Virus record (IMG/VR): IMGVR_UViG_3300050343_000163
DNA: 64,000 nt
From: a virus
Reading direction: 5' to 3' (one strand)
The notes under the pieces were generated by a model that did not search any database, was not told the DNA's origin, and saw nothing but the letters and a program-made list of their open reading frames with translations. A program made the translations under genes and the position numbers. Of the stretch, positions 1,090 to 32,114 are shown in pieces (within the stretch, counting starts at the first letter, position 1; every line of letters starts with the position of its first letter).

Positions 1090-2795
1090 TATTTTTTTAA
1101 TACAAAAATGTTTATTCCATTCCACCAAGAATTTGTATCTTCAATTTCACCAGTAAGAATACTTCTTTCATACAAAACTGTAATCTTATTCTCTTCAATA
1201 AAATCTTTTGTCGATGTCAATACACCATCAAGGTTTGCATCATCAACCACTAATATAAATTCATTCTCTGTATATTGAAGAATGTGATTTAAACAACTTC
1301 TCTGTACATTCAATTCATGATCTGCGTCATAAAAAATAGTATTTACTTTTTTATCTAAATTTTCTTCTGTAGCTTCACGGATATCACCATTTAAAATTGC
1401 AATGTTGCTGTTGTCTGTCCATACAGATTTTACATTCTCAATGAAAGTTTCAATAGATCCTTCTTCATCATCCCATGGAATGTCTTCTCTGATTGGTTTG
1501 ATATCTACATCACGCCAATGATCTGCTGCATAAGCAGTAATATCATTACCTTGAATTGCTGCACAGAATGTGCTGCCATTAAACACACCAATTTCTAGAT
1601 ACTTTGTATCCTCGTAAGAACATAGATTGTTGAGGAAGTGCCTTACCTTATCAGAAGTTAGACCCTGAATGTCGTGATCAAATTTTGACTTCCCTTCAAT
1701 AGCTTTATCAATAGAGTCTAAACATCTGGTTACAAATGGGTGACATACTCTCTCTTGTTTTTTAAGATGTGCTTCAACAACTGTATCGCAATAATTACAT
1801 TCCCAGCAATCAAATTTACAATTTTTAATTTTATCTCTCCATATATCAATGGGACGATCTTTCATATTAAGATCTTCCATGTATACATTCATACGTGGGA
1901 AGAGAATTTCATCACCATCATTCCATTTTTTAATGATGTCCATAGACTCCATTAATCTGATAGCACTTTCTCTACCATGCATTTTAAATACATCAATACC
2001 TAGATCAAGAAACTCTTGCCAGTCTTCTCTCCATGGCGGAATGTTTGCTGCTTTAAGAGATGCTGATGATTCTGTTACATCCCAAGTAGAACAAGATACT
2101 CTACTGATTTCAGAATTAAAATATTGAGGACTATCATCTCTTGTGGCATTGTATTGATAATGCTCTGGCATAATAGGACAACCACCCCAGCAATTTTCAT
2201 TAGCTAGCAATGATAGTTTTACTGGTTTATCAATAGATGCACAATATTCTTTTGCTTCGATAACTCTATTGAGAGCATCTTTATCTCTCATTAAATCTCT
2301 ATCAAGATTTACATAGTGAAATCCTGCTCTAGCACAAGCAACAATTTCATTTGCTTTTGTGACTTCTCTAAGGATTGTGTTTTTGATAAACAGTTCAGGA
2401 AATTCTCTTTGAATTTGTCCTGAAGAAACCCATGATGTATGAGGTAGAGTTACAATACGAACACCCTTATCATACAAAGGTTTAAAATTTTCTATCCACA
2501 GATCTAGATTTTTTTGATCTGGTCTAATCCACATGTTATTAAATGTGGCAGACAAAGGAATACCTGTCTCTTGAGAAATAAACAATGCATTTCTTGTAGT
2601 TCCACTAACAGGATCAACTACAAAAATATCACCCATCGCATCCTGATTAAAAGGAGGAATACGACAGGTAAAATATAGATCGTAAATTAAATGTTTATGC
2701 TCAATGAGGAATGGTATAAAAGTCTCCTCAGCAAATTTTTTATTGATCTTCGGGTTGATCGGCAGACTGAAGACGCTTGTCATTGAGTTGGTCAC
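1089..2795 (-). CDS. Peptidase-U32-like (Fe-S hydroxylase family) domain fused to a class I SAM methyltransferase
   Basis: N-domain has LDRDLMRD, LLANENCWGGCP, SRVSC and GIDVFKMHGRE (U32 GVDSLKIEGR-like). Linker is CKFDCWECNYC. C-domain has YLEIGVFNGST, IFYDADH and ILVVDDAN (Methyltransf_24-like). Start is either GTG 2795 or ATG 2783. Confidence 0.75.
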   Translation of the reverse strand: MTNSMTSVFSLPINPKINKKFAEETFIPFLIEHKHLIYDLYFTCRIPPFNQDAMGDIFVVDPVSGTTRNALFISQETGIPLSATFNNMWIRPDQKNLDLWIENFKPLYDKGVRIVTLPHTSWVSSGQIQREFPELFIKNTILREVTKANEIVACARAGFHYVNLDRDLMRDKDALNRVIEAKEYCASIDKPVKLSLLANENCWGGCPIMPEHYQYNATRDDSPQYFNSEISRVSCSTWDVTESSASLKAANIPPWREDWQEFLDLGIDVFKMHGRESAIRLMESMDIIKKWNDGDEILFPRMNVYMEDLNMKDRPIDIWRDKIKNCKFDCWECNYCDTVVEAHLKKQERVCHPFVTRCLDSIDKAIEGKSKFDHDIQGLTSDKVRHFLNNLCSYEDTKYLEIGVFNGSTFCAAIQGNDITAYAADHWRDVDIKPIREDIPWDDEEGSIETFIENVKSVWTDNSNIAILNGDIREATEENLDKKVNTIFYDADHELNVQRSCLNHILQYTENEFILVVDDANLDGVLTSTKDFIEENKITVLYERSILTGEIEDTNSWWNGINIFVLKK

Positions 2796-3516
2796 GGATT
2801 TGATCTAGGAGAGGGATGTTAAGGTTGTGTTCTACACCATGGAATGTAGGAACTTGAACGTCAGGAGATTCTGCATATGCTTGAAAATACTTCTCTGTTC
2901 TTCCTTGAATCTTATCCATAGAGATCTTCATCAAACAAGCATACTGAGATGCAACATCAAGAATACCAACTTGATCTTCTTCTTTCATCATAGCAATAGA
3001 ATCCATGTTGCCAATACCGACTCTACCATTTGCCATAATATCTAAAGCAGCTTGTTTACCAAGTCTTGCAATCCAATACTTTCTTTCATCTTCTTCATCC
3101 CATTCAACTGAATCCAATAGATCTTGTTTTGTTAGACCTTTGTCTTTAATATAATCTATGAAAACTTGAAGTTCATATTCTGCTTGACCCTTTCTTCTAT
3201 TCCACATTTCTTTATCGAGTTCAGCAAACTCAACTTCAGCTGCAGCAAATTCAATATCAAACTCATCTCCATCTTCTGCTTGGAGTTTCTCTAGTAAAGC
3301 TTTATCACGACGCAAACGAATATCTCCCTTCTTTTCATCGAGGAGCATTTTTTCATATTGATGTGATCGATTCTCGATCTCTAACAAAACTTGTTTTAGT
3401 TGTCGATCTTCTGTGACATGTGATTTGATCACATAGTCTAAAATTTGATTCTTCGACATACCAAGAGATACTCTTACAGCAATATCTCTAATTTCTTTAT
3501 CTGTAATTACACCCAT
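2740..3516 (-). CDS. Coiled-coil hypothetical protein of the tail-fibre-associated cluster
   Basis: 258-aa ORF, long helical/heptad N-half, phage-like codon usage, colinear with neighbours. Confidence 0.75.
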   Translation of the reverse strand: MGVITDKEIRDIAVRVSLGMSKNQILDYVIKSHVTEDRQLKQVLLEIENRSHQYEKMLLDEKKGDIRLRRDKALLEKLQAEDGDEFDIEFAAAEVEFAELDKEMWNRRKGQAEYELQVFIDYIKDKGLTKQDLLDSVEWDEEDERKYWIARLGKQAALDIMANGRVGIGNMDSIAMMKEEDQVGILDVASQYACLMKISMDKIQGRTEKYFQAYAESPDVQVPTFHGVEHNLNIPLLDQIRDQLNDKRLQSADQPEDQ

Positions 3517-3536
3517 AATAAATCAAAAAATAATGA

Positions 3537-4301
3537 TTAGAACTTGATACCAGGAATTACCTCATCTCTAATTAAAACACCCTGTTCGTTTTGGGTGTAT
3601 TTATTTTCTTCTTTTGCCTGTTGTTCTGGCATTGGAAGACCAAGGTAGTTCTCATATAACCTATTTATCTTCCTAATTGTATCGCAATCTGAGAACTCTT
3701 TTTTAATTTCTGAAGACTTAATGTAGAGTGCTTTTACATTTCTGTTGTAAGCATTTCTTTTTTCTTGAATTTTTGTTTTTAAATCAACTGGAGCTACACC
3801 CTTTGCTACTGACAATTCTCTGATGATGTAATCATTATTATTATCTACATCGTCATTTTGATATTCCCATGTCTTTTTCTCTAGTGCAGAAACACCTTCG
3901 TCTAAAGCTAAGAACCTTTGTTCAAAAGTTTGTTCTACAATTAACTTTGCTAGGAACTTCATAGTTCTTAGAATAGTATCATATCTCTTTTGTGTGACAG
4001 GAACTGCTACTTTAGGTCCTTCAGGTGCCATATCAGCATAAGATAGATTATCAAAATCTGCCTCATTTTTTAAATCATCAGCAGGAACTTTAATGGTAGA
4101 ACGAATATCACCAAGACTTCTCATACCAAATACTGCCATCTCTTTATCCATCTCGACAAATCTGTCTGATAAAGAATTTATACCATTTACGTCTTCAGAA
4201 TCCAACGAGAAAACATACCAATCAAGAACAGAGTTGATTGGTTGGTATGTAAGTAATTTTGTTAGATCGGGGAGTTTACCAACGAAATATCTTTTTGTCA
4301 T
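3537..4301 (-). CDS. Hypothetical protein, possible tail-fibre assembly chaperone
   Basis: 254 aa. The C-half (EKKTWEYQ...IIRELSVAKG...DLKTKIQEK) resembles fibre-assembly-type helical domains. Directly downstream of fibre genes. Confidence 0.55.
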   Translation of the reverse strand: MTKRYFVGKLPDLTKLLTYQPINSVLDWYVFSLDSEDVNGINSLSDRFVEMDKEMAVFGMRSLGDIRSTIKVPADDLKNEADFDNLSYADMAPEGPKVAVPVTQKRYDTILRTMKFLAKLIVEQTFEQRFLALDEGVSALEKKTWEYQNDDVDNNNDYIIRELSVAKGVAPVDLKTKIQEKRNAYNRNVKALYIKSSEIKKEFSDCDTIRKINRLYENYLGLPMPEQQAKEENKYTQNEQGVLIRDEVIPGIKF

Positions 4302-4303
4302 GC

Positions 4304-5449
4304 TTATACTCCTGTGTAACCGCTAGCTAGTGTACCATATTCAATAGCAGCACCCGATGCTCTACCAGGTGTTCCCTGAGAGTTGAGACTGCCATTTAAT
4401 CCAAATGAGTGTGTGGAGAAACTTACTTGACCACCAGTATTGTTCTGACCACCATCATACATACCGTTCATAAATCCATGTGTCATTCCCGTATGGAATG
4501 TTTCTTCACCAGTAGTTGCTGGTTTACTAACAGATCCTAGGTTAGAACCAGTAGTGTCATCTCTTCTTGAAAGTGCAGCGTTGGTTTGGTAACCACCTGC
4601 AGTGTTCCAATAAGAGAAATTAAGACGTGAGTTCCAAGTCTTGTTAGTTCCATCAGTGCCAGGAGCAGAACTCCAACCAGACCACGATTGAGTTGACCAG
4701 TCAAAGCTGTATCCATTACCACCTTGCTTATACCAACCTTTAGTTTCGCCATAACCACATGCAGGGTTATCACCACCAGTAGATCCGCCGCCACTAACAG
4801 TTGATACACTGTCATTAGTTAAGTCGTATCTGTCTGGGTTGTTGTTATTGTTTCCACAAACATATGCATACTTAAAGTCTCTCTTCATAACAGAAGTTCT
4901 GTTTCTTGAAGTCTGCATCGATGTTGCAGCACCAGCATTGGACTCAGTGACCATGCTGAAACTAGAAACATAGTTACCAGTATTGTTCCAACCGTTTGCT
5001 GTGCAGAAAACATATGCTCTCATAGCAGAGTTTTGAGCACCTGCTGTGTATGCGTCAGACTGATCAATTCTGTCGCCAATGTTAGCGTTACTAAACGTAG
5101 CATGTGTACAACGGTTGATGTTTCTCCATGCAGCACCACCTCGGTAACCTGCTGCTGGATATCCTCTAGTAATATTAAAACCTTCGGCAAACTCAACAAT
5201 GTTTTCCCAATAAGCGTTAGTACCATCTGATTTCAGTGTGGCTCCAACGGTGCTTGAATCACCAGCACTTGCAGGAAATTGCTCTGGTAAAGTTGAAAAT
5301 GGCGCACCATTTACAAGCAAACTATTACTGCCAATATCAATATTACCACCGAAGGTACATGAACCATCCGTATTCAACGAAATGTTGGGATTGGTTGAAC
5401 TACCTGCGGCGGTATATTTAAGTTGATCTACTCTTAATTCTGATGCCAT
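4304..5449 (-). CDS. Virion protein with fibre-type N-terminus and a kelch-like beta-propeller
   Basis: MASELRVDQLK start typical of cyanophage fibre proteins. About six G/N/S-rich blade-like repeats (RAYVF, YAYVCG, KGWYKQG, FSYWNTAG, HGFMNG). AGGAG SD and CTAAATA at 5475-5481. Confidence 0.65.
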   Translation of the reverse strand: MASELRVDQLKYTAAGSSTNPNISLNTDGSCTFGGNIDIGSNSLLVNGAPFSTLPEQFPASAGDSSTVGATLKSDGTNAYWENIVEFAEGFNITRGYPAAGYRGGAAWRNINRCTHATFSNANIGDRIDQSDAYTAGAQNSAMRAYVFCTANGWNNTGNYVSSFSMVTESNAGAATSMQTSRNRTSVMKRDFKYAYVCGNNNNNPDRYDLTNDSVSTVSGGGSTGGDNPACGYGETKGWYKQGGNGYSFDWSTQSWSGWSSAPGTDGTNKTWNSRLNFSYWNTAGGYQTNAALSRRDDTTGSNLGSVSKPATTGEETFHTGMTHGFMNGMYDGGQNNTGGQVSFSTHSFGLNGSLNSQGTPGRASGAAIEYGTLASGYTGV

Positions 5450-5474
5450 GGATAATAGGATCTCCTACCTTTAC

Positions 5475-5481
5475 TATTTAG
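5475..5481 (-). promoter_or_regulatory. Late promoter variant CTAAATA
   Basis: Plus strand tatttag at the end of the giant fibre gene, followed by AGGAG and ATG 5449. Confidence 0.6.
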
Positions 5482-8400
5482 ACGATGTTCCAGCTACCGC
5501 CATCAGCAACTGTGATCACAATATTGTTATTTATAGTGATAGGACCAAAACTACCACAGTTTGTTCCATTAGGAACAGTAATGTTCTCAGCAACAACTTG
5601 ACTGTTTGCTTTGAAGATACCGTAGGAGTCGATCCATTGCCTTACGCCGTTAGCGTAAAGAACGCTGGTGTTTGCTTGGTTAACGAAAGTTTGACCTTCG
5701 ATGTTTGTAGATCCAAGGACATGTAAGTCGTATGTAGGATCTTGTTTCTTAACACCAACTTTGGACAATCTATAGATGTCATTGCCGTTAGAAGCTTCTG
5801 TCCATCTAGATGTTACAAACTCTTGGTTGTTCTGGAAGAACTGACCATTCAAGTTAATATCACCTTGAACATTTAATTGATAGTTTCTACTCTGGTTATT
5901 AGTTGGGTCGGTTCCAGAAGTTGCATTAGTGTTAATTGCAATTCTATTGTCACCCTTAACCAAGAATGCAGGAGTTCCATTCCAAGATTGTCCACCACCA
6001 GCAGTTGATGCAGTAATTTCAAATGCATCACTATGTCCAATCTGGTTACCAATTCTGAAGTTTTTCTGACTGGAGGAACCTAAGAAGTACATACCAGCAC
6101 CAGAGTTATCATTAGCGGAATCTAACGTAACATAATTTCTAAATCTGGATGTACCATTAACATCTAACTTAAAGCTAGAACTTGGAGTTGAAGTTGAAAT
6201 ACCAACTGATCCATTATAATCAATGGTCATTGCCTCAGTTCCAACAGTTAGTGGAACCTCGTTACCACTTCTGCCAGGATCAACCATGAACGCAATGCGT
6301 CCATAAGAAGACCAAAGTGCCATTCTCTCACTGCCTCTATGGTCATAAAGTAGACCACCTCTTACAGTATCGTTATAAGTGAGTGCAAGACCAAACTGAG
6401 AATCAGCACCACTAGAACCATCTACCCAGTTACCATTAAACTGAGCAATGTCCATTCCATGAACAGTACCATAACTGTTAAAGTTAGAAGGTCTAATTCT
6501 CAACTTAACGTATGACTCACCAGCACGGTTAGTAAATACAGTCTCGCCAATACCGATCTTATTCTCAGAAGAGTCAACGAATAATGTATAGTTATCAACG
6601 TTAAGATCAGCAGTTAATGTTGTTGTATTGTTAACAGTTGCTGTTCCACTAACAGTGAGGTTAGAACCTGCACCAGTTAGGACAAGCGAACCAGTCATGG
6701 TATCACCAGTCTTCAGAACGTTGAGTGATGCAGCACCAGTTAGAGATGCGGTAATTGTTCCAGCGGAGAAGTTACCAGCAGAATCACGTTGTACTGCATA
6801 ACTACCAAGGTTAGCACTACTAAATTGAATGTTACCTTCGTTCCATGCTTTCTGACCATTGATAGTAAATGCATCAGCATTTAGAACTGTCAATGCTAAA
6901 GTACCAGATCCTAAACTAGCATTACCACCAGCTGCTTCAAATTTAGCAGTATAGTGATCATCTGGAGTTGCCGATACTAACTGAGAAGATCTAAAGTAAA
7001 TTGCAGGACTAGATGATTGACCATCAGTTCTTCCAAGTCTTAGTTCACCAGATCCAGAGTTATTAACAATCTTACCAACGTCTACTGTATTACCATCTTC
7101 TAGAGTAAAGTCATCAAATGGTTGTCTGTTAGATGCACTACCAGCAGTAAGAGCACCAACAAAGTTACCAGAGTTGAGTCTACCAATTAGAATCGTAAAG
7201 TCGTTAAAGTTATCTGCTGTATCATCGTTAGTTACAACACTATCAATAACAAAACTACCAACAGCTTGTGCGTTGGCGTTATACAAGTTGATTGGATTAC
7301 CTGCAGCAAATACTCCCGTTGCAGATGTGTCGAGGATAACTCCAGAGAAGTAAATTCTGAACTTAGGATCACCAAGGAATCCTTTAACACTTACGTTATC
7401 TCTAAAGTTAGTTGCACTAATGAATCTAGGAAGTCTATTATCAGATAAAGTTCCTTCATTAATGTTTAGAGCATTTTGATACCAAGTGCCCTGTCTATTG
7501 TCAAGTCTGTCAGCGTCAAGACCAGAGTCAAGACCATCATTCAATGATGTCCATACCTTCGCCCATGTACCGAAAGATCCAACACCAGTTCCAGATCCAC
7601 GGAGATACATGTTATCATTATCCGTGAATGCAAGTTGTCTTACACCACCAAATCCAGCATCGAAACCAGAACCACCATTTCTGAAGGTTACAGTCATGTT
7701 TCTGGTGCCACCATCAGTTAGTCCATTAGCACTATTGAAGATTGTGTTAGCAACAATACCAGAACTGAAGTTGTTAGGAGCAGGAGAAGAGGACGGGTTG
7801 TTAGTACCTGTAAGAACACGAATCGTGTTACCTGCTGTACCAGAAATTGCGATGTTGTAAGTTCCAGCTAATCTATCAGAAGATAGAGTACCAGCACTCA
7901 TGTTACTAGCATTTAGATAGAATGTACCTTGTACACCGTCTAGTAAGTCAGCATCAAGTCCACTATCTGCACCAGTCTTAAGTTCAACAGATCCATTTCC
8001 TGCCTGACCAAGATTGAATTGTGATTTCTTATATCTAGAAACACCAATTGTACCGTAAAGGTCAGCAGAAATTGTAAGATCAGTAACTCTCTGAACGTCA
8101 ATAGATACGTTTGCATACTGTCTGTTGACCGTAGAAACTTTTGATTCTAGTACAAGAGAGGATCCAGCACCAATGACACCAGGAGCAGAGGTTACAGTAA
8201 AGTCTGAACTATATCCAGTACCACCATCAGTAACAGTAATTTCTGTTACAACGTTACCAGCAACAACAATATTAACCTTGAGTCCAGTTCCTGTTCCACC
8301 TGTTAGCGAAACATCAAAGTATTGACCGTTGGTGTAACCAGAACCAGCGTTAGAAATAATAACATCATCAACAAATCCACCTTGAGTGAATGTTGATTCA

Positions 8401-11400
8401 AATGATAGAGGAGATGCACCACGCTCAAACTCAATAATTGTTCCGAGAGGAATTGTTGCATTGACTGGGTTGTTTAGAGAGATCGTAGTTAGACCTGCTG
8501 CGGTAATAACACCAGTAATGTTTGTATTAGTCTGAATACCACTTACAGTATTCTTAACTTCATGACCAATAAGAACATCAGAGTTTGTAGTAAAGATCAT
8601 CTGAGATGATCCTGTAGTACACTGAGATGCCAATCTTGCAAAGTACCTGCTTTCTGCACCTTTGAGTGACTGCATTGCTAGTGCAAAGCTAGAATCACCT
8701 CTTAAGAATGTGAAGGAGTTTGCAGATCCACCAACAGCAAGTCTGTCTGTTTCAATAACACCAGATGTAATATCGGAAGCAGCAATCTGATTGGAAGATA
8801 GTGATACCCAGTTGTTAGCATCGAAGGAAGATGTATTTACAACTCTAGTAATGTTAACTGTATTAGCAGTAGGTGATGTACTATCATCAACAGTATCAGT
8901 ATCTTCTATCTTAATGTTGTTGACGATATCACCATATATTCTGCTCTCAATTAGAGCATTACCTTGTGCTTGTGTACCAGCTCCAGTAGGAGCAGCAAAT
9001 GTAATATTAGGAGCAGTAGTATATCCTTTACCACCTCGGAATCCACCAAAGTCATTAATAGTAACAGTAACAACTTGACCATTAGCAATAGTACAAGTAG
9101 CAGCTGCAGAAACTGCACCAGCTTCTGGGTTACCACCAGCAAATGTAACTACAGGAGCAACAGTATATCCAGAACCACCGTTACTAATATTAATTTGGAA
9201 TACAACACCTTTTCTATATTCAGTTGATTGAATGCGTCCAGTAGTTAAACTACCAGTAAGGATGTCACCGATGGTGAATGTTAAAGCAGGATCTGGGTTA
9301 AATCCAAGGAACAGACTATCATTATCATTGTTTAGAATGAATGATGTTGATGTATCCTGTTGAATTGCAATGTCACCAGCAAGTGCTCCTTCTAGTGCAG
9401 TTCTTTCTGTTTGGTTTGCAACAGTGAAGACACTGAATGGTCTGAGTGCTGGAATCTGATCAATAGAGATCTTACCAGAATCAGTAAGTTCAACCAATGC
9501 TCTAGGAACAGCGTTCGTAGAATATGGTTTGTTGATGTAAGGTCCTAAAGCATTAGTGATATAATCTTTAACTGCCTTTTGTGTAGGTAGTTTAGAATCA
9601 CTAGAGTTAGCACCACCAAGTGTGTTGGATGCGTCAAAACCAGTAACAACAACGTCACCACCTTTCAGTTTCAAGAATTCAACTTCAGAGATCGTAACCG
9701 TACCAGTGAAGGTAATGTTACCAGTTCTGTTTTCGATTCTAGCGAAAGTACCAACCTTAAAGTCACCAAGTTCATCAGTACCAGAAACATATACACGACC
9801 GTAGTTTTCAGATACCTGTTCGTATGCTTCGACTTTAGTACCACCGTTCTCAGGAAGAGCTAGGTAGTTAGTTCCTGAACCCGCAAATTCCCACGTATGA
9901 GAAGAAGAGTTAACAATCGATGGTCTGTGTAAGTTAATTGTTTTACCAGACAGAATACTGGTAGATACTGCCTGACCAGTTGCTATATCTGTAAGATCCA
10001 TGGCACCACCTGTGCCATCATCAATAGTTAATTGTGCAGAGAAAGGAGGACCAACTGTAACTCCAGCTACAACATCAACAAAGTATTCAATATCTACATT
10101 AGTGTTTCTATATCCATCAATCTTAACAACATAATGCTCTAATGGTTCTCTACCAAGTCCACTAAGTGTTAGGATAGTTCTACCAGTAGGAGTAGAAGAA
10201 ACATTTGAAATCGTTGCAATATCAAATGCATATGGGTCCTTACGGAAACCTATACCTCTTAATGCAAATGTACCAAAGTTGGTAGCAGAGTTAGTGATTG
10301 AGCAGTAACCACCAGATTCAGCAAGAACACCATCAGCACAGAAGATAACGAAGACAGAAACTAACTGAGTATAACCATCGTTGATAACCTTATATCCTGT
10401 ACCACCAAAAGATACAATCGTGAATGCAGATGCAACCATCGACTTACCCTGATTGGGGAAGGATGCTGTTCCGTCTAACTCAAGACCAGGGAATGGGCAG
10501 TTGGGTTGTTTAACCTTGGCACCATCAACCTCAGCACCGCCACCACCTAGGAAGGAGATAACAGATGCGTTCTGGGTGTATGGAGATGCCTCGATAATTG
10601 GATAGTCATCGTAATCACCACGAATTGCTAGTCTGTTGTTATTAGCATCAGAAACAAAGTTATCTGGATACGAAATAATTTGTGAAGTATCATATAGAGA
10701 ATTGCTAGTTCTAGATGTAGCACCAGAAAGAACTGTTCCATCTAAGATATCTTCAAAAAGATCCATAGATGTATTGATGGAAGAAGCAACGTTAGAACAT
10801 TGTGAAGTTTGTCCCGTGCTGTATACAAGTACAGAGTTGTTAGTTGTTCTAACAAATGTATGTGCAGATTGTGGTAAATGCTTGAGGCAATTAGTTGCAG
10901 CAGTTACGAATGTATGTGCAGATTGTGAAATCTGAGTAATTGATCCTGCAGCACCACTTACAAAAGTATGTGCTTCACCAGAAGCAGCACCACCAGCTCC
11001 TACGTTAACTGTAACAGTTCCAGTTTGTCTCTCGATACCATTAGCTAATGCACTTACAAAAGCATGTGTGCCTGTGTAAGAGGAAAGACCAGTATTAATT
11101 TCAAAAGTATCGGTAGTTACATTACTAATTTGTACCCATTTGTTACTCAACTTATCATAGTTGGCACGAGGATATGTTTTGTTTACTGAATTTCCATCCA
11201 GATCACAAGTAAAAGTTAGACTATCGTTAGCAATTTTTACATAATCTCCATTTGCAAAATTATGTCCAGCACTTGTTATAACTAACTTTCCACTAGATGC
11301 TGTGTAGACAGCATTGGTAGCTGTATGTTGACTAGAAGAAACTGCTGTGATATTTAAAGATGCACCTGAAGCGGGGTCAGATGGTCTTGGATATGTTTCT

Positions 11401-14400
11401 ACAGTTGTATTACCATCACCATTATAGTCACATGTAAATGCTAGAGAATTATCTAGAATTACAATTCCTTTATTAACATCAAGACCATGCTGAGTTCCAA
11501 GTTCTAGAACTAATTCACCAGTAGATGCATTGTAGGTAGTTCCTGTTTGTGCAGTAAGTAATTTATTTGCAGGAGATACACCTACGTTTAATGTAATAGT
11601 TGTATCACTTACACTATCGATAGGTATAGATCTCAATGCGTATGGGTCATGACCTGCTCTTGGATATGTTTTAGTAGCAGTATTTCCATCCATCGTACAT
11701 GTGAACGATAGACTATCAGTATCAAGTACAACACCTTCACCAATACTAAGTCCATGACCAGTACCAATAGTTAGAACCAGAGCACCTGTAGCAGGATCAT
11801 AAGTTGCATCACTTGGAGTCCACTGTTGATCAGGACCAGATACGCCAACATTAATTGTAAATGTATCTGCAGATGTTGATGTTACTGCCAGAGCATTGCC
11901 ATATGCAGTTTGACCAGATTGAGGTAAACTATGCTCAGTGGCATTACCGTCCATTGCACATGTAAATGTGAATGATTCTGGAGAAAGACTAATACTATTA
12001 CTTGTAGTAACACTATGACCTGTCACAGTCATTGTGAAATCACCATTAGCAGGATTATAGGTAGCTGTTGATGGTGTATGCTGTGCTATTGGAGCGCCTG
12101 CATTTGGATCTGGAAGAATATTCCAATCTTCAAATCTTGGAATAGGTGAAGTTAGTACAGTAGGATTGTAAACAATAATAGTTCCATCTGTTACTGCACT
12201 TACAAATGAATGTGATGAACCAGAAGCAGCTCCTGCATTACCAACGTTACAAGTAACTGTGGTGACACCACCAGAAGATTGAACATTAGTGATGGCATGA
12301 CTCTTGCCATAATTATCATCAGTTTTTAATGGACTTGAGTGTGTTCCAGTAACACTGTTATATGTACATTGGAAGGCAATTGCTTCTTCTTTAAATGCAA
12401 TTCTATCTCCTACATTAGGAGCAATGAGAGGATCAGGGAAGATTACCTCTAATGCACCAGTAGAAGCATTGTATGTTGCGTTAGTTGGAGTGAGATCAAC
12501 ATATGATCCATCAGTCCAGTTACGCATTGCTGCGATAGCATATGTTTTAGCTCTTTGATATGCAAAGATAGTTTCTGCTCTTTGTGCTTCTGGAATACCA
12601 GTTAAAGCAGTTTGTGTAAAGTAAGATTCGGCAGCTATAACAATATTCTCATTACCACCAAATGTTAAATCTTTTGCTAGATTACTTAGCGTAATACCAA
12701 GATCTCTTTTACATTTTCTTTCGTTTGTGTTATCAAGTGAGAATAATGGGAACTGACCTAATGTATCACGTAATGCTTGATCAGCAATTAGATACTTATT
12801 CCTTTCAATTAAGTATGCAGCATCCAGATAAGTTCCATTTTGATTCTTGGTAATAAGATCAACCCAAAGGAATGATAAAGTATCAATTGCAGATTTAACA
12901 TCAGCACAAGCTGGAGTACCCGCAGTTGCTGTGATGACTGTATCATCAAAGTATCTTGTTACAGAAGAATATACAGGAGAATAAATTGGATCTGATGGAG
13001 TACCGTCACCAGTTCTCCAGTTTCTCATTGCAAGGATACAAAGTTCTCGTGCATATTCAATCGCACGGAAGTTTTGAACAATTTCATCCTTGATGTATGC
13101 AATATCACCACCAAGAATATACTTCTTAGCTGCTTCAATAATGTTGAAGTTTGAACCAAATTCTAAATCTCTTACTAGAGCATTAACAAAGTGAATAACG
13201 TCTTGGCGGCATTGCTCATCACCGTCACTTCCTGTGTTATCTCCACTAGTTGGGGAACTATAAGAAGGGTAAGTTTTTTGACCAGCATCACAGGATAGTA
13301 GAATGTCTGCTAACTTAATGGTATCATCTTCTACTAAAGTTGATAAAGCAGAATCTACTGTGATAGTTGCATAACCTGTTATGATATTATCGTAACTAAA
13401 GTTAGTAATATTTACAGTTGTATTTTCAAATTTAACTGTACCACCAGAAACATAAGTATGAGTTACTGGAGTCTGACCTAAGAATACTTTAAATGTATCT
13501 CCACCACCAGTGATTTCAGATACCTGATAATAGTCTTTAGCAAATTGTCTATTGATTCTTCCTACAACTTCATCTGCAATAAACTCTCTGTTATTACGTA
13601 GGAATACACAAGCATCTTGGAATCTTCTTTCTACAGGAGTAGATAGAGGGAATGTGTTTGGTGAGTTTAGTAGTGATAGAGTAATTACTTTTGAAAAACT
13701 CTTAACAGTTGCAAATTGACCAGGATCTAAGTTAGCATCTGTGATAGATGGAACTTTTTTAGGAATTACAAATCTTCTGCAGCGACCATCTGCATCTTCT
13801 AAGACTTTATAAATTCTTTGCTTACCATTTAGAAGTGATAAGTCAGGGTTTGAAGTAGGAAGATTTTCAATTAAAATTTCCTGACCTTCTTTAAACTCGT
13901 GAGTATTTGTTCTACCAACTAGTGCGTTAGTATAGAAGACAACACCACCAAGATCTTCTGCATTACCAAACTGAGCATTTTGGAAACCACCTGTTGTAAT
14001 ACTTGGATCTCCTTGTAAAGAGAAATCAAGTCTAGAAATAGGTAGAGTTGTGGTGTAATCTTCATCTACTGCTACAACCTCACCTTCTGCTCGAATTGAT
14101 TTAATAGCAGTAGTGTCAATATTTTCAGTTTGTGCAGTAGCTTGATTGATTGCATATGTACCACCAACACCAGTTGCATCCCATGTGGGAGCATTTAGAA
14201 TTGGGAAGAATGTTACATCCCAAATATTACTTGCAGATTGCGTAGAATCAATCGCAGAAACTTCATAGAATCCTGTAAAAGCATTACCTGTGGATGGTGT
14301 TCCTACTAATTGTACTACTGTACCACCAGGAATAGTTCCAGTTGGATCTTGTGTAAATCGTAAAGTGTTTGGTCCCTGTTGACCAGTAATAGCAAGGTTG

Positions 14401-15956
14401 ATAGCACTACCTGCACCAGCAGATGTGATATATGAGAATTGCTCACCTTCAACAAAGGAACCAGATTGTAATTGGACATCAATTGTACCATTTACATATG
14501 CACTAGCACCTATTGTAGTTGCAAATTTAACGTCAAATATTTTTGCTCTAGAACCAGTGTTAACACCTTTTACAATTAAACCAGATACTAATGTAGCAAG
14601 ACCTGTATTGTTTTGGAAAGAAACACGGAACTGCTGTGGTCCAAAAATTTGATGACCAACTGGGAATGATGTACCAAAATCACCATTAGCTTCTCTGTCA
14701 ACGATAACTCTTTGCTTATCGTCAAAGACCATAGCAAAATCCCAAGTAGCAACTGCATCGCCATTGGAATCAATTTGGTCACGATAAGTAACACCAATTA
14801 CATAGTTCTTATCACCAAACTTAACAATGTGTTTGCCAGGATTAGCAGGACGAATGATGACCAAACGTAGGTTATCACCAACGATGGAAGAATCGGGTGG
14901 TAGTGAAATTGGGTTATCTTCTACATAATCACCACCAGATACAATAATAGTTTCTTTAACACCAGGCGTTTTCCATGCCTCTTGTGCTGCTTTTTTAATT
15001 GTTCTAACAGGGTTTACAGCAGATCGACCATCATTAAGGTCAGAACCAATCTGTTGTGAAACGTAAATACGACCACCAACGTCATTCGTTGCTAGGTTGA
15101 GGACGTATTCTGTAGTAGCAATCTTGTCTGATCTATCACCCAATAGAGGTGTAATAGATCTTGGGAATACACCAGAGTCTCCAGTATCATTATATCTAAA
15201 CTCATTTGGATCGTTGACGCGGAAACCAATGTGTTTGAAGTCAACATCACCGTTTTTGATGATACCATCAACGTGTTCTGGAGCTTCAGAACCAGTTTGA
15301 CCAGTGTTTAATGCTTGATAAACATTAGCTCCAAAATATCTGTAAGAATCTTTTTGTAGAATAACATTAGCAGACCATAAAATGCCTGTGTTATTCATGT
15401 AATTCTTCAGGTTTGGACCCCTGAAGTTAGCATCTGGAGTAATAAAGTTGTCAATATCTAGGTTTAGAATTCTTGCCGTATCAGAAATGATAGACGTAGA
15501 TGTTCTAATAGCACCATTAATATCAAGTTCATAATCAACAGTATCAAGGAAAGCAGTAGCAGTAGCACCAGAACCACCACCTTCAGAAATAGTAACAATT
15601 GGAGCAATGGTATATCCGCTGCCAGGATTATTAACAGCAATTGTAGTTACTTTGCCATTAAAAGTAAATGCGGAAGCAAGAGCTTGTATACCACCAGCAG
15701 CATTAGGAGGTCCGATAGTTACTGTTGGGTTTACAGTAAATCCACTACCTGCAGTGTCGAGAACGATATTATTAACTCTTTGCCCAGTTCGGTTAATACC
15801 GACACGGGGTAATTGCGTAGTAGAGTCTAACTCAGTTCGCAAGACTTCTTTTTCGTCTGCTCCTGTGCCAACTCTAATCGTGGCTTCATTATCACCGATA
15901 AGTTTAGGATTTACGCCCCTAATCTTTTCTTTATCGGAATTAATATGAAAACTCAT
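5478..15956 (-). CDS. Giant tail fibre/spike protein (3492 aa): beta-helix, phycobiliprotein-like helical domains, nested beta modules, fibre C-terminus
   Basis: RIYVSQQIGSDLNDGRS...VRTIKKA and SPYTQNAS...DGYTQLVSVF are pectate-lyase-like beta-helix motifs. Also GSGYT repeats, ADLLDG repeats, GIGTTTP-like fibre repeats and a C-terminal GPITINNNIVITVADGGSWNIV. Lies between gp8 and gp13. Confidence 0.85.
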   Translation of the reverse strand: MSFHINSDKEKIRGVNPKLIGDNEATIRVGTGADEKEVLRTELDSTTQLPRVGINRTGQRVNNIVLDTAGSGFTVNPTVTIGPPNAAGGIQALASAFTFNGKVTTIAVNNPGSGYTIAPIVTISEGGGSGATATAFLDTVDYELDINGAIRTSTSIISDTARILNLDIDNFITPDANFRGPNLKNYMNNTGILWSANVILQKDSYRYFGANVYQALNTGQTGSEAPEHVDGIIKNGDVDFKHIGFRVNDPNEFRYNDTGDSGVFPRSITPLLGDRSDKIATTEYVLNLATNDVGGRIYVSQQIGSDLNDGRSAVNPVRTIKKAAQEAWKTPGVKETIIVSGGDYVEDNPISLPPDSSIVGDNLRLVIIRPANPGKHIVKFGDKNYVIGVTYRDQIDSNGDAVATWDFAMVFDDKQRVIVDREANGDFGTSFPVGHQIFGPQQFRVSFQNNTGLATLVSGLIVKGVNTGSRAKIFDVKFATTIGASAYVNGTIDVQLQSGSFVEGEQFSYITSAGAGSAINLAITGQQGPNTLRFTQDPTGTIPGGTVVQLVGTPSTGNAFTGFYEVSAIDSTQSASNIWDVTFFPILNAPTWDATGVGGTYAINQATAQTENIDTTAIKSIRAEGEVVAVDEDYTTTLPISRLDFSLQGDPSITTGGFQNAQFGNAEDLGGVVFYTNALVGRTNTHEFKEGQEILIENLPTSNPDLSLLNGKQRIYKVLEDADGRCRRFVIPKKVPSITDANLDPGQFATVKSFSKVITLSLLNSPNTFPLSTPVERRFQDACVFLRNNREFIADEVVGRINRQFAKDYYQVSEITGGGDTFKVFLGQTPVTHTYVSGGTVKFENTTVNITNFSYDNIITGYATITVDSALSTLVEDDTIKLADILLSCDAGQKTYPSYSSPTSGDNTGSDGDEQCRQDVIHFVNALVRDLEFGSNFNIIEAAKKYILGGDIAYIKDEIVQNFRAIEYARELCILAMRNWRTGDGTPSDPIYSPVYSSVTRYFDDTVITATAGTPACADVKSAIDTLSFLWVDLITKNQNGTYLDAAYLIERNKYLIADQALRDTLGQFPLFSLDNTNERKCKRDLGITLSNLAKDLTFGGNENIVIAAESYFTQTALTGIPEAQRAETIFAYQRAKTYAIAAMRNWTDGSYVDLTPTNATYNASTGALEVIFPDPLIAPNVGDRIAFKEEAIAFQCTYNSVTGTHSSPLKTDDNYGKSHAITNVQSSGGVTTVTCNVGNAGAASGSSHSFVSAVTDGTIIVYNPTVLTSPIPRFEDWNILPDPNAGAPIAQHTPSTATYNPANGDFTMTVTGHSVTTSNSISLSPESFTFTCAMDGNATEHSLPQSGQTAYGNALAVTSTSADTFTINVGVSGPDQQWTPSDATYDPATGALVLTIGTGHGLSIGEGVVLDTDSLSFTCTMDGNTATKTYPRAGHDPYALRSIPIDSVSDTTITLNVGVSPANKLLTAQTGTTYNASTGELVLELGTQHGLDVNKGIVILDNSLAFTCDYNGDGNTTVETYPRPSDPASGASLNITAVSSSQHTATNAVYTASSGKLVITSAGHNFANGDYVKIANDSLTFTCDLDGNSVNKTYPRANYDKLSNKWVQISNVTTDTFEINTGLSSYTGTHAFVSALANGIERQTGTVTVNVGAGGAASGEAHTFVSGAAGSITQISQSAHTFVTAATNCLKHLPQSAHTFVRTTNNSVLVYSTGQTSQCSNVASSINTSMDLFEDILDGTVLSGATSRTSNSLYDTSQIISYPDNFVSDANNNRLAIRGDYDDYPIIEASPYTQNASVISFLGGGGAEVDGAKVKQPNCPFPGLELDGTASFPNQGKSMVASAFTIVSFGGTGYKVINDGYTQLVSVFVIFCADGVLAESGGYCSITNSATNFGTFALRGIGFRKDPYAFDIATISNVSSTPTGRTILTLSGLGREPLEHYVVKIDGYRNTNVDIEYFVDVVAGVTVGPPFSAQLTIDDGTGGAMDLTDIATGQAVSTSILSGKTINLHRPSIVNSSSHTWEFAGSGTNYLALPENGGTKVEAYEQVSENYGRVYVSGTDELGDFKVGTFARIENRTGNITFTGTVTISEVEFLKLKGGDVVVTGFDASNTLGGANSSDSKLPTQKAVKDYITNALGPYINKPYSTNAVPRALVELTDSGKISIDQIPALRPFSVFTVANQTERTALEGALAGDIAIQQDTSTSFILNNDNDSLFLGFNPDPALTFTIGDILTGSLTTGRIQSTEYRKGVVFQINISNGGSGYTVAPVVTFAGGNPEAGAVSAAATCTIANGQVVTVTINDFGGFRGGKGYTTAPNITFAAPTGAGTQAQGNALIESRIYGDIVNNIKIEDTDTVDDSTSPTANTVNITRVVNTSSFDANNWVSLSSNQIAASDITSGVIETDRLAVGGSANSFTFLRGDSSFALAMQSLKGAESRYFARLASQCTTGSSQMIFTTNSDVLIGHEVKNTVSGIQTNTNITGVITAAGLTTISLNNPVNATIPLGTIIEFERGASPLSFESTFTQGGFVDDVIISNAGSGYTNGQYFDVSLTGGTGTGLKVNIVVAGNVVTEITVTDGGTGYSSDFTVTSAPGVIGAGSSLVLESKVSTVNRQYANVSIDVQRVTDLTISADLYGTIGVSRYKKSQFNLGQAGNGSVELKTGADSGLDADLLDGVQGTFYLNASNMSAGTLSSDRLAGTYNIAISGTAGNTIRVLTGTNNPSSSPAPNNFSSGIVANTIFNSANGLTDGGTRNMTVTFRNGGSGFDAGFGGVRQLAFTDNDNMYLRGSGTGVGSFGTWAKVWTSLNDGLDSGLDADRLDNRQGTWYQNALNINEGTLSDNRLPRFISATNFRDNVSVKGFLGDPKFRIYFSGVILDTSATGVFAAGNPINLYNANAQAVGSFVIDSVVTNDDTADNFNDFTILIGRLNSGNFVGALTAGSASNRQPFDDFTLEDGNTVDVGKIVNNSGSGELRLGRTDGQSSSPAIYFRSSQLVSATPDDHYTAKFEAAGGNASLGSGTLALTVLNADAFTINGQKAWNEGNIQFSSANLGSYAVQRDSAGNFSAGTITASLTGAASLNVLKTGDTMTGSLVLTGAGSNLTVSGTATVNNTTTLTADLNVDNYTLFVDSSENKIGIGETVFTNRAGESYVKLRIRPSNFNSYGTVHGMDIAQFNGNWVDGSSGADSQFGLALTYNDTVRGGLLYDHRGSERMALWSSYGRIAFMVDPGRSGNEVPLTVGTEAMTIDYNGSVGISTSTPSSSFKLDVNGTSRFRNYVTLDSANDNSGAGMYFLGSSSQKNFRIGNQIGHSDAFEITASTAGGGQSWNGTPAFLVKGDNRIAINTNATSGTDPTNNQSRNYQLNVQGDINLNGQFFQNNQEFVTSRWTEASNGNDIYRLSKVGVKKQDPTYDLHVLGSTNIEGQTFVNQANTSVLYANGVRQWIDSYGIFKANSQVVAENITVPNGTNCGSFGPITINNNIVITVADGGSWNIV

Positions 15957-15991
15957 GGTGTTCCCGTGCTTTTGACTTTTTTCCTATTCTA

Positions 15992-15998
15992 TATTTAG
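15992..15998 (-). promoter_or_regulatory. Late promoter variant CTAAATA
   Basis: Plus strand tatttag in the 45-nt gap upstream of the 3492-aa gene. Confidence 0.65.
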
Positions 15999-16000
15999 CA

Positions 16001-16501
16001 TCAAGCCCATGCAATACTGATAACTTCTGTGGATGAAACCCACTTAATAGTTGCAGTTGTACCAGCTCTTACTGTGTTATAGCTAAAAACGTTTGTTCCA
16101 CCAGTAGGTTCAATCCCCCAAGTTTCACCTGTAGGAATATCATCTTTAATTACTGTTTGGAAACTAGACATAATATTTACATTTCCTGATCCATCACATG
16201 AGACCGCAGTCTCAAATTTGACAGCATATACAGTTCCTGAATCATTAACTGCAATGATGTTTCCTGTGACAAAATTTAAAGTAGAATTTGCAATAGGAAT
16301 TTTTGTTCCTAATCCATCCAAGTCAAGAGTAGAGGTGTTAAGACCTCGTAAAATATAACGAGTTTGTGAACTATCTGTGAAATGCCTGTTCTTTACTTCT
16401 AGAGTATTAAAATCTTTTGCATTTCTTTCTTCATCAACAATAACAGTTTTGCCGATAGCAAATCCACCTTTAGAATCAAATTTTTCGGTTGTAGTTGCCA
16501 T
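16001..16501 (-). CDS. Small virion structural protein
   Basis: 166-aa beta-rich ORF coupled to the 1795-aa gene. Confidence 0.75.
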   Translation of the reverse strand: MATTTEKFDSKGGFAIGKTVIVDEERNAKDFNTLEVKNRHFTDSSQTRYILRGLNTSTLDLDGLGTKIPIANSTLNFVTGNIIAVNDSGTVYAVKFETAVSCDGSGNVNIMSSFQTVIKDDIPTGETWGIEPTGGTNVFSYNTVRAGTTATIKWVSSTEVISIAWA

Positions 16502-16503
16502 TT

Positions 16504-19500
16504 TTATTTCTTAGTAATAGTAGATACGATAGTGATCTCGATTTGATGACCAGTGGTGAGGTCTGATCCAACTGTAAAATTGATTCTAGCAAAGTTGCCA
16601 GATGTTCTTTCAAAAGTAGGGACAATTAGTTGTTGTCCTGTTCTGACATTACCATACTCTGTATGGAAGATGTCTGTTCCATTATCTATAATACCAAACT
16701 CAAAGAATTCTCTATCATTATTATTTAAGTTCTCAGCAACTACAACTGTCTTAGCTCCTACCGCTGCTTGAGCATCGTAGATATCAGATCCACTGGAGTT
16801 TGCAGAACCTTTTGTTAGAGTTACTTTTTCTGTCAAGATCTTAGTGTCTGCAAGTTCAAACTCTTTGAGATCTCCATCAAAAACTTTTACTCCAGTAAAG
16901 TTACCTGTACCAAATGAGGTATTGAAATAAACATCACCTTGATTGTCAAGTCTAAGAACTGGGTCAACTGATAAACCACCTGAAAGACCTAAGTCAAAAT
17001 ATTGCTTACTGGTATGTAAGAATGTTCTATCTGTTTGAGTATTATCAAGAGTTGTTTCAGCATTATCAAATGTCATCAAGCTTGCTGTAATTTCAAACTC
17101 GCTAGATGTGCTTGAGATAATAGTATCTACGCTGTAGAATTCAAGTGCGGATGCGGTAAGACGCATCGTATTTGTTCCATCATTGTAGAAGTATAATATG
17201 TTTTCGTTTGCACCAGGTGCAGTTTCGGGAATAATATAAGTGTTTTGATCAACGTCTTTTACTCCACCAAGAGAACCCCAGTTGGTTCCGTCATATCCTT
17301 CAAACTGACCAGCAGTTGTATTGAATCTAACACCACCCTGTATTACTGAACCTCTGTCTGCATCAGAACCAGATGGAAGTGCTAAACTGGTATTTGTATT
17401 ACATACAATTTTCTTACCAGAGTTTGGTTGTAAAGTAATATCATTAAGATCTGTAGAGATAATGTTATCTCTAAGTCTTAAATCTCCATTGATTACTAAA
17501 GGAGAAGAACCTAATGGATCTAATCTAATTTCTTCAACGTCAACAAATGTTAGAGGACCAACTGCAAGACCCCAGAAAGTTAATGTGCAGCTACCATTAG
17601 TTACAGCACCACTTGTATGTGTAGGTTCATTACCACTTGTAGCAGTGTTACCTGCTACTGTAACTTCGTATAAATTATTTTTGTGCTTTAGATATGCACC
17701 AACTAGTACAGGTGCATTAGCAATCCAATCTGTAAATGCTGGAGCAGATGTATTTGCAGACTTGATAGTCTTATTAGTTCTAAACTCTAATTCATTTGGT
17801 GTAAATTTAACAGTATTAGATCCATCATTGTAGAACCAAAGTGTGTTATCATTAGAACCAATTGAAAGTTCTGCAGTAATGTAAGTATTACCATCTAGAT
17901 CTCTAATACCACCAAGTGAAGACCAAGAAGAGGAAGAAGCACTATAACCTTCATATTGATTACTATCTGTGTTATATCTGATCGATCCATTTTCTGCGGC
18001 ACTAGCACCAGGACGTTGTGCAGATGTACCAGCAGGAATGTTGATAGAACCAAAACCAGTAACTTTGGTGACCTTACCAGTAGGTGCAGTTAGAACTAGG
18101 TCACTACCAGCATCGGTAGAAATAACATTATTCTCAATAGTTATTTTGTCATTGATATTTAATTTATCTGTAGTCTTAAGTTCACCCGAAGTAAGAACGT
18201 TACCGTCTGCCTGAGTAACAGTCAATCCACCAACTGTAAAGTCTGCAGTAGACTCTACAGAAGTTCCTGTTAAAGTAAGAGCAGCATCTGAAGTAATTAA
18301 TGGAGTTGTAACGCTAGTGGTTGCTGCAACAGTTGTAGAAGAAACATCAGGAGCACTGAGAGTATCAATAGTACCTTCAGTAGCTTTAATATCAGCAACA
18401 GTTACCTCACCAGTAAGAACTTCCATTGTGACGATATTCACAGATGAAATATCCGTAGCTCTTAGAATTAATCCACTACCAAATACTTTAGGATTATTTG
18501 GATCAATGGTGATTAATGCTTCTTGATTATCTTCACCACCTTCATTTTCATGACCAATACCAGAATTACAGAAATAGTAAAGGTTTGGAGTTACAGAAGT
18601 AACAGTTAGATCGAGATAGTCATTACCTTTCTCTACACCATCAGTATATTCAACACCAGAGAAATTAACAACCACAGCACCTGCTGTAGTTGGAAGAAGA
18701 GAAACAGTTACTTGAGTAGCACTATCAATAGAAACAACTCTTGTATCAGATGCTAATACACCAGCACCGCTAACAGTTGAAACAAGCATTCCTTCTACAA
18801 TTCCTGTAGTGGATGCCACGGTTAGAGTATAACTAGCTACATCTAATGTTGTGCTAACATTCTCTACTAAACTTGGAGCATATGGTCCGTCTCTAAATTC
18901 ACTAAGAGCAAATTGGTGACCAGATACACTGTTATCACTCAAATCAAATCTATAAGTGTTACCAACATAAATTGTCCACGATGGAGTAATTTGTGGTCCA
19001 GATCCAACGTCAATTAAGAATCTAAATTCAAGAACAGATGCTGTATCAACTGTATATTGTGTTCCAGCAGCACCAGTCTTAACAAATGTATTTCCAGAAG
19101 TAAATAAAGTTGCTTGATCTACTTCAATTAAGATAGTAGAAATATTACCACTGCCATCTAAAGCAATATCTACAATTGTAACTGGGGTGGCAACATTTAC
19201 GGTGTCTGCTGTAATTGTAATATCATCTGCAGGCGTAGCTCCACCAATTAAGTTACCAGCAATAGTTAAAGTATCACTATTAGAGTATCCTAGACCAGCA
19301 GCATTGAGAGTTACGCCAATAATTAAACCATTGGTGCTTCTCTCTACATCAAATGTTGCACCACTACCACCACCAGCAGATGTTGATGCAACACCAGTAA
19401 ATGATCCCTGCTCATCTGATGTGAATGTTAGGTTGATACTAGCAGTTTGAAGGAATGCAGCAGATAGTGTTACTTGAGTTGCACTATCAACAGATGCAAC

Positions 19501-21891: not shown

Positions 21892-22084
21892 TTTTTATTA
21901 ATCCGTGCAGTAGTGATTTGAGTTCAGAGACTTCATTCTTCAATGTATTTATGTCGTCCAATGCGGAACTTAACTGCATAGATTTCCTTCTTGCAGCTAT
22001 AGCAGAATCGTCCAAATTCAAGATGGCACCAGTGTTTTGGTCTCTTACGAGACCATCATGTCCATCAACTTTTACAAAGTCCAT
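21878..22084 (-). CDS. Small conserved cyanomyovirus protein
   Basis: MDFVKVDGHDGLVRDQNTGAILN plus a C-terminal coiled coil. A similar gene is recalled after vrlC-like genes in these phages. Confidence 0.8.
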   Translation of the reverse strand: MDFVKVDGHDGLVRDQNTGAILNLDDSAIAARRKSMQLSSALDDINTLKNEVSELKSLLHGLIKNASN

Positions 22085-22093
22085 ATGCGGAAA

Positions 22094-30181: not shown

Positions 30182-30216
30182 CGTACTCCGCCAATAATAC
30201 TAGTATTCTCGTTGAA

Positions 30217-30223
30217 GTATTTA
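30217..30223 (-). promoter_or_regulatory. Late promoter variant CTAAATA
   Basis: Plus strand tatttag in the gp8-vrlC intergenic gap (approximate coordinates). Confidence 0.55.
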
Positions 30224-30242
30224 GCGAAGTAACCAAAGAGTA

Positions 30243-32057: not shown

Positions 32058-32093
32058 TGTTTTTCTGTTCCGACGTAGTGTTTGTGCCTGAGT

Positions 32094-32107: not shown

Positions 32108-32114
32108 GCAATAT

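Follow-up and report, generated by a model that had tools for sequence, protein, structure and literature searches.

A phycobiliprotein-like repeat module in the giant tail-fibre and baseplate proteins of marine T4-like cyanophages

Here we describe a protein repeat module of about 110-140 amino acids (aa), two copies of which lie in a giant tail-fibre protein encoded by a 64,000-nucleotide stretch of viral DNA (IMG/VR virus record IMGVR_UViG_3300050343_000163; the whole stretch is hereafter called the window). The module is very probably a diverged phycobiliprotein globin domain made up of helices B, E, F, G and H and most likely captured from a cyanobacterial host, although we infer the direction of capture. 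It defines a previously undescribed, abundant and highly insertion-tolerant domain family, which marine T4-like cyanophages use in giant gp7-type baseplate and tail-fibre proteins. Phycobiliproteins are known as the antenna subunits with which cyanobacteria, red algae and cryptophytes harvest light, and a phycobiliprotein fold with chromophore residues as a main building block of a virus baseplate and fibre would be an unexpected host-to-virus co-option. The finding makes testable why many cyanomyoviruses carry the T-type lyase gene cpeT, on what basis phages S-PM2, P-HM1 and P-HM2 adsorb only in light, and whether the virus particle carries pigment. Even if purely structural, the module accounts for much of the uncharacterised mass of the 3000-7000-aa cyanophage virion proteins annotated as structural or hypothetical protein. 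Full-text literature searches, whose coverage was incomplete so that an earlier publication is possible, returned no description of a phycobiliprotein-like module in phage virion proteins.

The original prediction for this DNA, drawn from the letters alone, placed two phycobiliprotein-like domains with chromophore-site cysteines inside the fibre. All eight peptide strings it quoted occur in the minus-strand translation of 5478-15956, those of copy A at residues 779-798, 914-935, 964-979 and 1014-1035 and those of copy B at residues 1043-1070, 1080-1101, 1130-1146 and 1718-1738, and the four Cys codons it named are correct, encoding Cys916, Cys1017, Cys1082 and Cys1720. The two copies align with 30% identity (BLASTP E 1e-12), so the duplication is real and chance is ruled out. 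The phycobiliprotein strings that it gave agree with real CpcA, CpcB and CpeB from two cyanobacterial genomes, and 9 of the 24 residues around the module B Cys are identical to real CpcA. The claimed Cys-x-Arg-Asp site holds for copy B, which reads a canonical C-K-R-D, but not fully for copy A, where C-R-Q-D brings the Arg one position early. The count of two modules fell short, as the window has four, with a second pair (one of them degenerate) in the open reading frame (ORF) at 32118-42389; also missed was that the repeat is widespread in cyanomyovirus baseplate and fibre proteins rather than peculiar to this fibre. An insert of about 100 aa splits copy A and one of 569 aa splits copy B, and both copies are recovered by the family hidden Markov model (HMM). 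With the module helices numbered h1 to h4, the features are:

5478-15956, minus strand: giant tail-fibre-like ORF of 3492 aa (ORF list and translation), host of modules A and B.
13545-13628, minus strand: module A helix h1, corresponding to helix B; residues 777-804, helix 3-30 of the AlphaFold2 model, HMM positions 5-38, placed on helix B by hhalign.
13224-13544, minus strand: beta-domain in the B-E loop of module A; residues 805-911, AlphaFold2 strands 35-122, motif SCDAGQKTYPS.
13026-13223, minus strand: module A helices h2a, h2b and h3, corresponding to E, F and G; residues 912-977, HMM positions 38-111 (E 1.9e-16), AlphaFold2 helices 138-203.
13200-13211, minus strand: codons of Cys916-Arg-Gln-Asp919 of module A (Cys at 13209-13211), read from the sequence.
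12849-12917, minus strand: module A helix h4, corresponding to helix H, with Cys1017 (12906-12908); residues 1014-1036, AlphaFold2 helix 246-261, placed on helix H by hhalign.
12525-12836, minus strand: module B helices h1 to h3; residues 1041-1144, HMM positions 2-110 (E 3e-29), AlphaFold2 helices 267-370.
12711-12713, minus strand: Cys codon of the canonical Cys1082-Lys-Arg1084-Asp1085 of module B, read from the sequence.
10812-12518, minus strand: insert of 569 aa in the G-H loop of module B; residues 1147-1715, five beta repeats of about 88 aa.
10737-10811, minus strand: module B helix h4 with Cys1720 (10797-10799); residues 1716-1740, same register as module A h4.
32118-42389, minus strand: second giant ORF of 3424 aa, probably a gp7-type baseplate protein, host of modules C and D.
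35982-36296, minus strand: module C in the second giant ORF, degenerate, with Y-E-R-N replacing C-x-R-D and no Cys (HMM E 2.7e-19).
35172-35603, minus strand: module D, with a canonical Cys-Gly-Arg-Asp (Cys codon 35487-35489) and an h4 bearing a Cys (35172-35237) (HMM E 1.1e-25).

Residues 770-1160 of the fibre, searched exhaustively against 1.84 billion representative proteins, matched 533 proteins, many with multiple units and one of 6382 aa with up to 32 matched stretches; an iterated HMM then located 1428 modules in 149 representative proteins. The core of the module, about 106-112 aa long, opens with helix h1 (pattern A..L..N(K/R).FI..E), continues with helix h2a (K-C-x-R-D-V-G-Y-I-x-D-A-x-x-x-D-L-x-Y-G-G-N) and the short helix h2b, and closes with helix h3, to which many family proteins add the further helix h4. 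Overall identity among the 1428 modules is only about 20-25%, and the Cys and Asp positions, whose conservation across homologues had been named beforehand as a decisive test, are retained in 97% and 99% of them, respectively, alongside the Arg (94%), a second Asp (98%), a Tyr (99%), a Gln or Glu (95%), a Thr (84%) and an Asn (82%). At default thresholds the module falls under no Pfam family. Where modules stand in tandem, helix h4 of each leads straight into h1 of the next; proteins of 4183 and 4384 aa from metagenome contigs have 22-23 modules back to back, without a Cys on h4, and lie a short way downstream of the T4-like neck genes gp13 and gp15. The proteins with 20-30 modules come from uncultured T4-like phages; the best matches of their gp13 are in Microcystis phage Mel-JY01 (50%) and Flavobacterium phages (40%). 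One family member, P0137 (3905 aa), is a module-bearing fibre protein with a C-terminal Peptidase_S74 domain (an intramolecular chaperone), in which isolated h1-like helices occur in runs of three to four before one full module.

The predicted structure ties this module to phycobiliproteins. Folding residues 770-1160 without an alignment gave a predicted local distance difference test score (pLDDT) of 34, whereas AlphaFold2 modelled residues 775-1152 with a pLDDT of 88 and a predicted template modelling score of 0.86 from an alignment of 117 rows that held no phycobiliproteins (including 30 non-redundant orthologous viral-contig segments and 86 two-module windows from five giant proteins). When this model was aligned to 48,161 representative chains of the PDB, independently of Foldseek, ranks 1 to 8 were all phycobiliproteins (Z 11.7-14.7, root-mean-square deviation (rmsd) 2.2-3.1 Å, 115-142 residues). 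The best match was phycoerythrin beta (5aqd_M; Z 14.7, rmsd 2.2 Å, 142 residues), with model residues 1-262 lying on chain residues 31-184, followed by the bilin-binding domain of ApcE (4xxi_A; Z 14.3, rmsd 2.2 Å), far-red allophycocyanin (Z 13.9), ApcE in three phycobilisome structures (7eyd, 7sc7 and 9wg7; Z 12.6-13.0), ApcB (Z 12.6) and a phycourobilin-containing phycoerythrin (Z 11.7). In the model, the globin-type core thus superposes on solved phycobiliproteins; the globin-type fold first proposed for these copies finds its closest match there, and a non-globin bundle was not obtained. Among predicted viral structures, the nearest neighbours are proteins of cyanophages with no name beyond structural, tail or uncharacterised, and the ESM Atlas offered no usable structural neighbour (best score 0.76).

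Sequence profiles lead to the same family. Searched against 177,635 PDB sequences, the module profile gave 69 matches at E<=10; phycobiliproteins take the first 38 places and most of the remaining ones, the best being R-phycocyanin alpha (1f99_A, E 1.4e-4). These alignments set the module Cys, Arg and Asp on Cys84, Arg86 and Asp87, the Gly-Gly on the E-F turn and h1 on helix B. With hhalign, 79 modules were compared with 24 real phycobiliproteins from two cyanobacterial genomes, giving a probability of 91-93% and E-values of 5e-8 to 1e-6 over 116-123 columns, against a probability of 0.1-0.2% and a score of at most 12.7 for reversed or column-shuffled decoys. In this comparison helices h1, h2a, h2b, h3 and h4 correspond to B, E, F, G and H, respectively, and the four helices stand in phycobiliprotein order, as had been proposed. 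Every one of the 24 real phycobiliproteins has a single C-x-R-D, at residues 78-116 of the extracted ORFs; it falls at 78-85 in those with a correct start codon and later in a few ORFs with an N-terminal extension. Moreover, when 117 module segments were scanned singly (two-module segments, E<=10), 27 matched the phycobiliprotein family PF00502, with a best E of 1e-7, the next family being matched by eight. The whole family member P0136 (3689 aa) reaches 30.4 bits over profile positions 33-138 of 155, above the curated PF00502 threshold of 22.2, and faint precomputed PF00502 matches occur on both P0136 and P0137.

Further likenesses concern details within the fold. Modules and phycobiliproteins arrange helices B, E, F, G and H alike and share the C-x-R-D that opens helix E and is followed by a Gly-Gly turn, as well as a conserved Asn and Ile in helix B. 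Fibre modules also share with beta subunits a second Cys ten residues ahead of the aromatic position of helix H, and beta subunits have an insertion of their own in the G-H loop, where module B has its insert. In contrast to phycobiliproteins, the phage modules are repeats embedded in virion proteins of 3000-7000 aa, have from 100 to about 570 aa inserted into the B-E and G-H loops, and lack the X/Y/A helices and hence the alpha-beta pairing surface. Both structural and profile alignments begin near phycobiliprotein residue 31-37, indicating that the X/Y hairpin that forms the alpha-beta monomer is absent. With these helices missing and the module embedded in a fibre protein, assembly into (alpha-beta)3 discs or phycobilisome rods would be unlikely.

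Some results weigh against the phycobiliprotein relationship. PF00502 has no match at E<=10 in the window fibre protein or in its excised copies, for which Pfam returned noise only (SpoVG, Med2 and BORCS6), so that the window copies alone fall below the Pfam threshold. Likewise, a single-sequence search of PDB sequences had no match at E<=10, phycobiliproteins being reached by the family profile only. Other globin-like proteins score Z 10-11.7, with worse rmsd. Foldseek against the PDB reported phycoerythrin beta with a probability of 1.00 and a TM score of 0.53, but an E-value of only 0.06-0.1, in a listing dominated by spurious long ATP-synthase alignments (rmsd about 26 Å). Finally, masking the C-x-R-D columns in hhalign left the same 116-column register but lowered the score from 45.3 to 22.3, with E 0.009 and a probability of 4%, meaning that much of the sequence signal rests in one helix.

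The candidate attachment sites line up with those of phycobiliproteins. C1082-K-R-D of copy B aligns with Cys84, Arg86 and Asp87. In copy A, Cys916 is present in all 30 non-redundant orthologues, the distant ones of which read a canonical CRRD or CTRD. In real CpcB and CpeB, a second attachment Cys stands ten residues before the Tyr of the helix-H YFDR; hhalign sets Leu1027 of copy A on this Tyr, which puts Cys1017, ten residues earlier, in the register of beta-Cys155, and Cys1720 of copy B is in the same register. Cys1017 is kept in 30 of 30 non-redundant orthologues and Cys1720 in 124 of the 124 homologues with a match. The multi-repeat giant proteins possess h4 without a Cys on it, so the second site belongs to the fibre and gp7-type modules and not to the whole family. 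Among gp7 proteins, that of P-HM2 retains a canonical AKCARD and GGCQDV.

A tblastn search of 50,697 phage records with copy B matched 312, all of them Synechococcus, Prochlorococcus or 'Cyanophage' records except one marine single-cell virus, and a canonical unit from a metagenomic giant protein gave the same taxa. Among the matched proteins are a putative 6076-aa fibre of Syn9 and the giant gp7 of P-HM2, P-SSM4 and MED4-213, named 'baseplate wedge initiator'. T-type lyases act on the beta-153/155 Cys (PMC10452541). CpeT, the cyanophage T-type lyase (PF06206), has another fold and family; it is no relative of the module but would likely be its partner. All 19 isolate species with an orthologue of the window fibre encode CpeT. 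In ACG-2014j, a gap of 290 bp separates the end of cpeT from the downstream gene, on the same strand, for a 4057-aa 'short tail fiber' with at least six modules (cpeT at 2515-3039 and the fibre gene at 3329-15502, numbered within the stretch 15000-34000 of that genome); some modules of this fibre are split as if modules were nested inside modules. The genomes compared read as follows:

P-SSM2 (NC_006883.2): no modules and no CpeT detected; ferredoxin-dependent bilin reductase present.
P-HM2: three modules, one canonical; CpeT present; bilin reductase present.
Syn9: modules that keep Cys and Asp and have lost Arg; divergent CpeT; no bilin reductase.
P-SSM4: modules with both Cys lost; divergent CpeT; bilin reductase present.
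ACG-2014d: canonical modules; no CpeT detected; no bilin reductase.
ACG-2014j and three relatives: many modules; CpeT present; no bilin reductase and no heme oxygenase.

CpeT thus follows the modules fairly well, if imperfectly, while the bilin synthesis genes do not. The tblastn count of 73 records with cpeT is an undercount, as an HMM found divergent CpeT-like genes in Syn9 and P-SSM4, and the idea that cpeT is missing from most phages with modules was dropped for that reason; the 64-kb window itself has no cpeT. P-SSM2 has a bilin reductase and no detectable module, so the presence of bilin synthesis genes in a phage does not depend on the module, and since the relatives of the window phage show the reverse, we rejected as a general rule the idea that phage ho1, pebS and pcyA exist to feed the modules.

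We judge the chance that the module still binds host-made bilin to be about even. The first bilin would sit on the Cys that corresponds to Cys84, with the Arg and Asp holding it in the manner of phycobiliproteins, and a second could be attached to the beta-155-like Cys of helix H, the class of site served by T-type lyases such as phage CpeT. The relatives of the window phage that were examined lack heme oxygenase and bilin reductase, so in this group the bilin would need to be supplied by the host. Virion fibres and baseplates would then be pigmented, and the pigment might stabilise the fold or make the conformation of the fibre light-responsive. By our estimate, a few dozen bilins per virion would escape notice in ordinary phage preparations. 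Several considerations point to such binding: amid an identity of about 20-25%, the three residues conserved best are precisely those of the phycobiliprotein chromophore triad; packing hardly accounts for a single Cys retained at 97%; the conserved second Cys lies at the T-type lyase site; and a T-type lyase gene accompanies, and sometimes adjoins, the module genes.

The main and serious rival to bilin binding is that the module was co-opted for structure only. It would then derive from a phycobiliprotein, have lost its bilin and serve as a rigid helical hub that sets the inserted beta-domains apart and presents them on fibres and baseplate arms, with the Cys, Arg and Asp joining Asp54, Tyr70, Thr87 and Gln/Glu83 in a buried polar network that would keep the helices together, and we consider this quite possible. 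The module is used in up to about 30 tandem copies per protein, with large inserts in its loops and no X/Y pairing helices. Asp54, Asn60, Tyr70, Gln/Glu83 and Thr87 are invariant in modules and foreign to real phycobiliproteins, and Asp54, Tyr70, Gln/Glu83 and Thr87 could fill the pocket. The motif is also altered in places: the Arg is displaced in copy A (whose Cys and Asp, C916-R-Q-D, are kept) and missing from the Syn9 modules, module C of the window has lost its Cys and kept its fold, and both modules of P-SSM4 gp7 have lost the helix-E and helix-H Cys together (QKKTD with YFDAV; VQNN with ISNV), again with the fold kept. The genomic company also tells against bilin binding: ACG-2014d has canonical modules and no detectable CpeT, close relatives of the window phage have no bilin synthesis genes, P-SSM2 has the reductase and no detectable module, and the association between CpeT and modules is confounded by shared ancestry within a group of phages of about 190 kb. 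On the other side, a structural Cys would usually swap with Ala, Ser or Val, whereas this one is held in 97% of 1428 modules; the conservation of the full triad, the second Cys at the lyase site and the occurrence of CpeT in 19 of 19 species with the fibre, next to a module-bearing gene in one case, also speak against a purely structural role.

A different use of the Cys residues, in disulfides or other bonds that would link modules or chains and so harden the extracellular fibre, or in binding a metal or another ligand, seems improbable. Virion proteins are extracellular and often cross-linked, and the inserted beta repeats each have one conserved Cys. The joint loss of both Cys positions in the two P-SSM4 gp7 modules also fits such chemistry, and hints in any case that the two sites are functionally coupled. 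The giant multi-repeat proteins, however, keep the first Cys without the Cys of h4, so the two are not an obligate pair, and cross-links leave the joint conservation of Arg and Asp with the Cys unexplained. A disulfide within one module was considered and appears unlikely from globin topology and the 2.2 Å fit of the model, because the starts of helices E and H lie at opposite ends of helix B.

Convergence, by which a generic helical bundle with a C-x-R-D helix would resemble phycobiliproteins by coincidence in both fold and motif, is very improbable: helical folds readily give middling Z-scores, the Foldseek E-values are weak and masking the motif takes the hhalign probability from 91% to 4%, but the masked profile keeps its register and scores well above every decoy, phycobiliproteins fill the first eight places in the structural search and align over most of the domain, the motif stands at the same position on the same helix, and only viruses of cyanobacteria, which alone among bacteria make phycobiliproteins, carry the module.

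If bilin binding does occur, a bolder proposal, which we regard as rather unlikely, is that cyanomyovirus baseplates and fibres carry covalent host bilins at both types of Cys, the beta-155-like one by way of phage CpeT, and that they act as a photoreceptor gating fibre deployment. S-PM2 and P-HM1/P-HM2 adsorb only in light, independently of host photosynthesis, and light-sensitive receptors or tail fibres have been tentatively proposed for this but never identified (PMC6628666). A virion photoreceptor, if real, would explain this behaviour and why cyanophages have cpeT. P-HM2 and S-PM2 have canonical modules and cpeT, and dark-adsorbing P-SSM2 has neither at a detectable level, which is a three-phage anecdote and not a test.

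Among known systems, the nearest architectural precedent is ApcE, a large multidomain protein that likewise contains a phycobiliprotein-like domain, with an insertion in one of its loops. ApcE attaches its own bilin without a separate lyase, so an embedded domain can be chromophorylated. It differs in being a cellular component of the phycobilisome with one such domain, whereas the phage proteins carry repeats; in addition, its pairing partners are of the ApcB type, and a different helix bears its binding Cys. The same globin-like fold is found in sensory proteins, namely the bilin domains of photocobilins (8j2y and 8j2w), the N-terminal domain of RsbR (3zta and 2bnl) and globin-coupled sensors (4zva and 4uiq), but these fit the module worse (Z 10-11.7, rmsd 2.7-6.9 Å) and give no recurring Pfam or profile signal.

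Since large insertions are tolerated in the B-E and G-H loops, the module doubles as a hub that displays beta-domains along the fibre. The inserted beta repeat is about 88 aa long, with the pattern 'TYxxxTGxL ... (F/S)(T/Q)Cxx(D/A)G ... YP(R/S)'; one lies in module A and five in module B, the latter of the form 'TYxxxTGxL ... FTCxxDG ... YPR' with the motif at residues 1195, 1331, 1418, 1507 and 1582 of the fibre protein. It has no Pfam family, and the repeats of the module B insert match the virion structural protein repeats phrog_701 and phrog_18802. The modelled beta-domain of module A has structural matches (Z 6.2-6.8) among the tail-tip and baseplate domains of phages R4C, Chi, lambda and JBD30.

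The fibre itself is readily placed among phage structural proteins. The 3492-aa ORF matches the full length of the phrog_5342 'tail fiber protein' profile (E 0, 5000 bits), and its orthologues, found in 47 records of 19 isolate species, bear tail-fibre or tail-fibre-like annotations in Synechococcus phages S-CAM4, ACG-2014j and S-RSM4. The neighbouring structural genes are the same around these orthologues as around the window fibre, with synteny in ACG-2014j. Judged by these orthologues and shared neighbours in Synechococcus phages, the window comes from a T4-like marine cyanophage of Kyanoviridae type. G+C content rises to 0.45-0.49 at window positions 46001-50000 and 54001-56000, against a background of about 0.35-0.39, which could mark host-derived genes.

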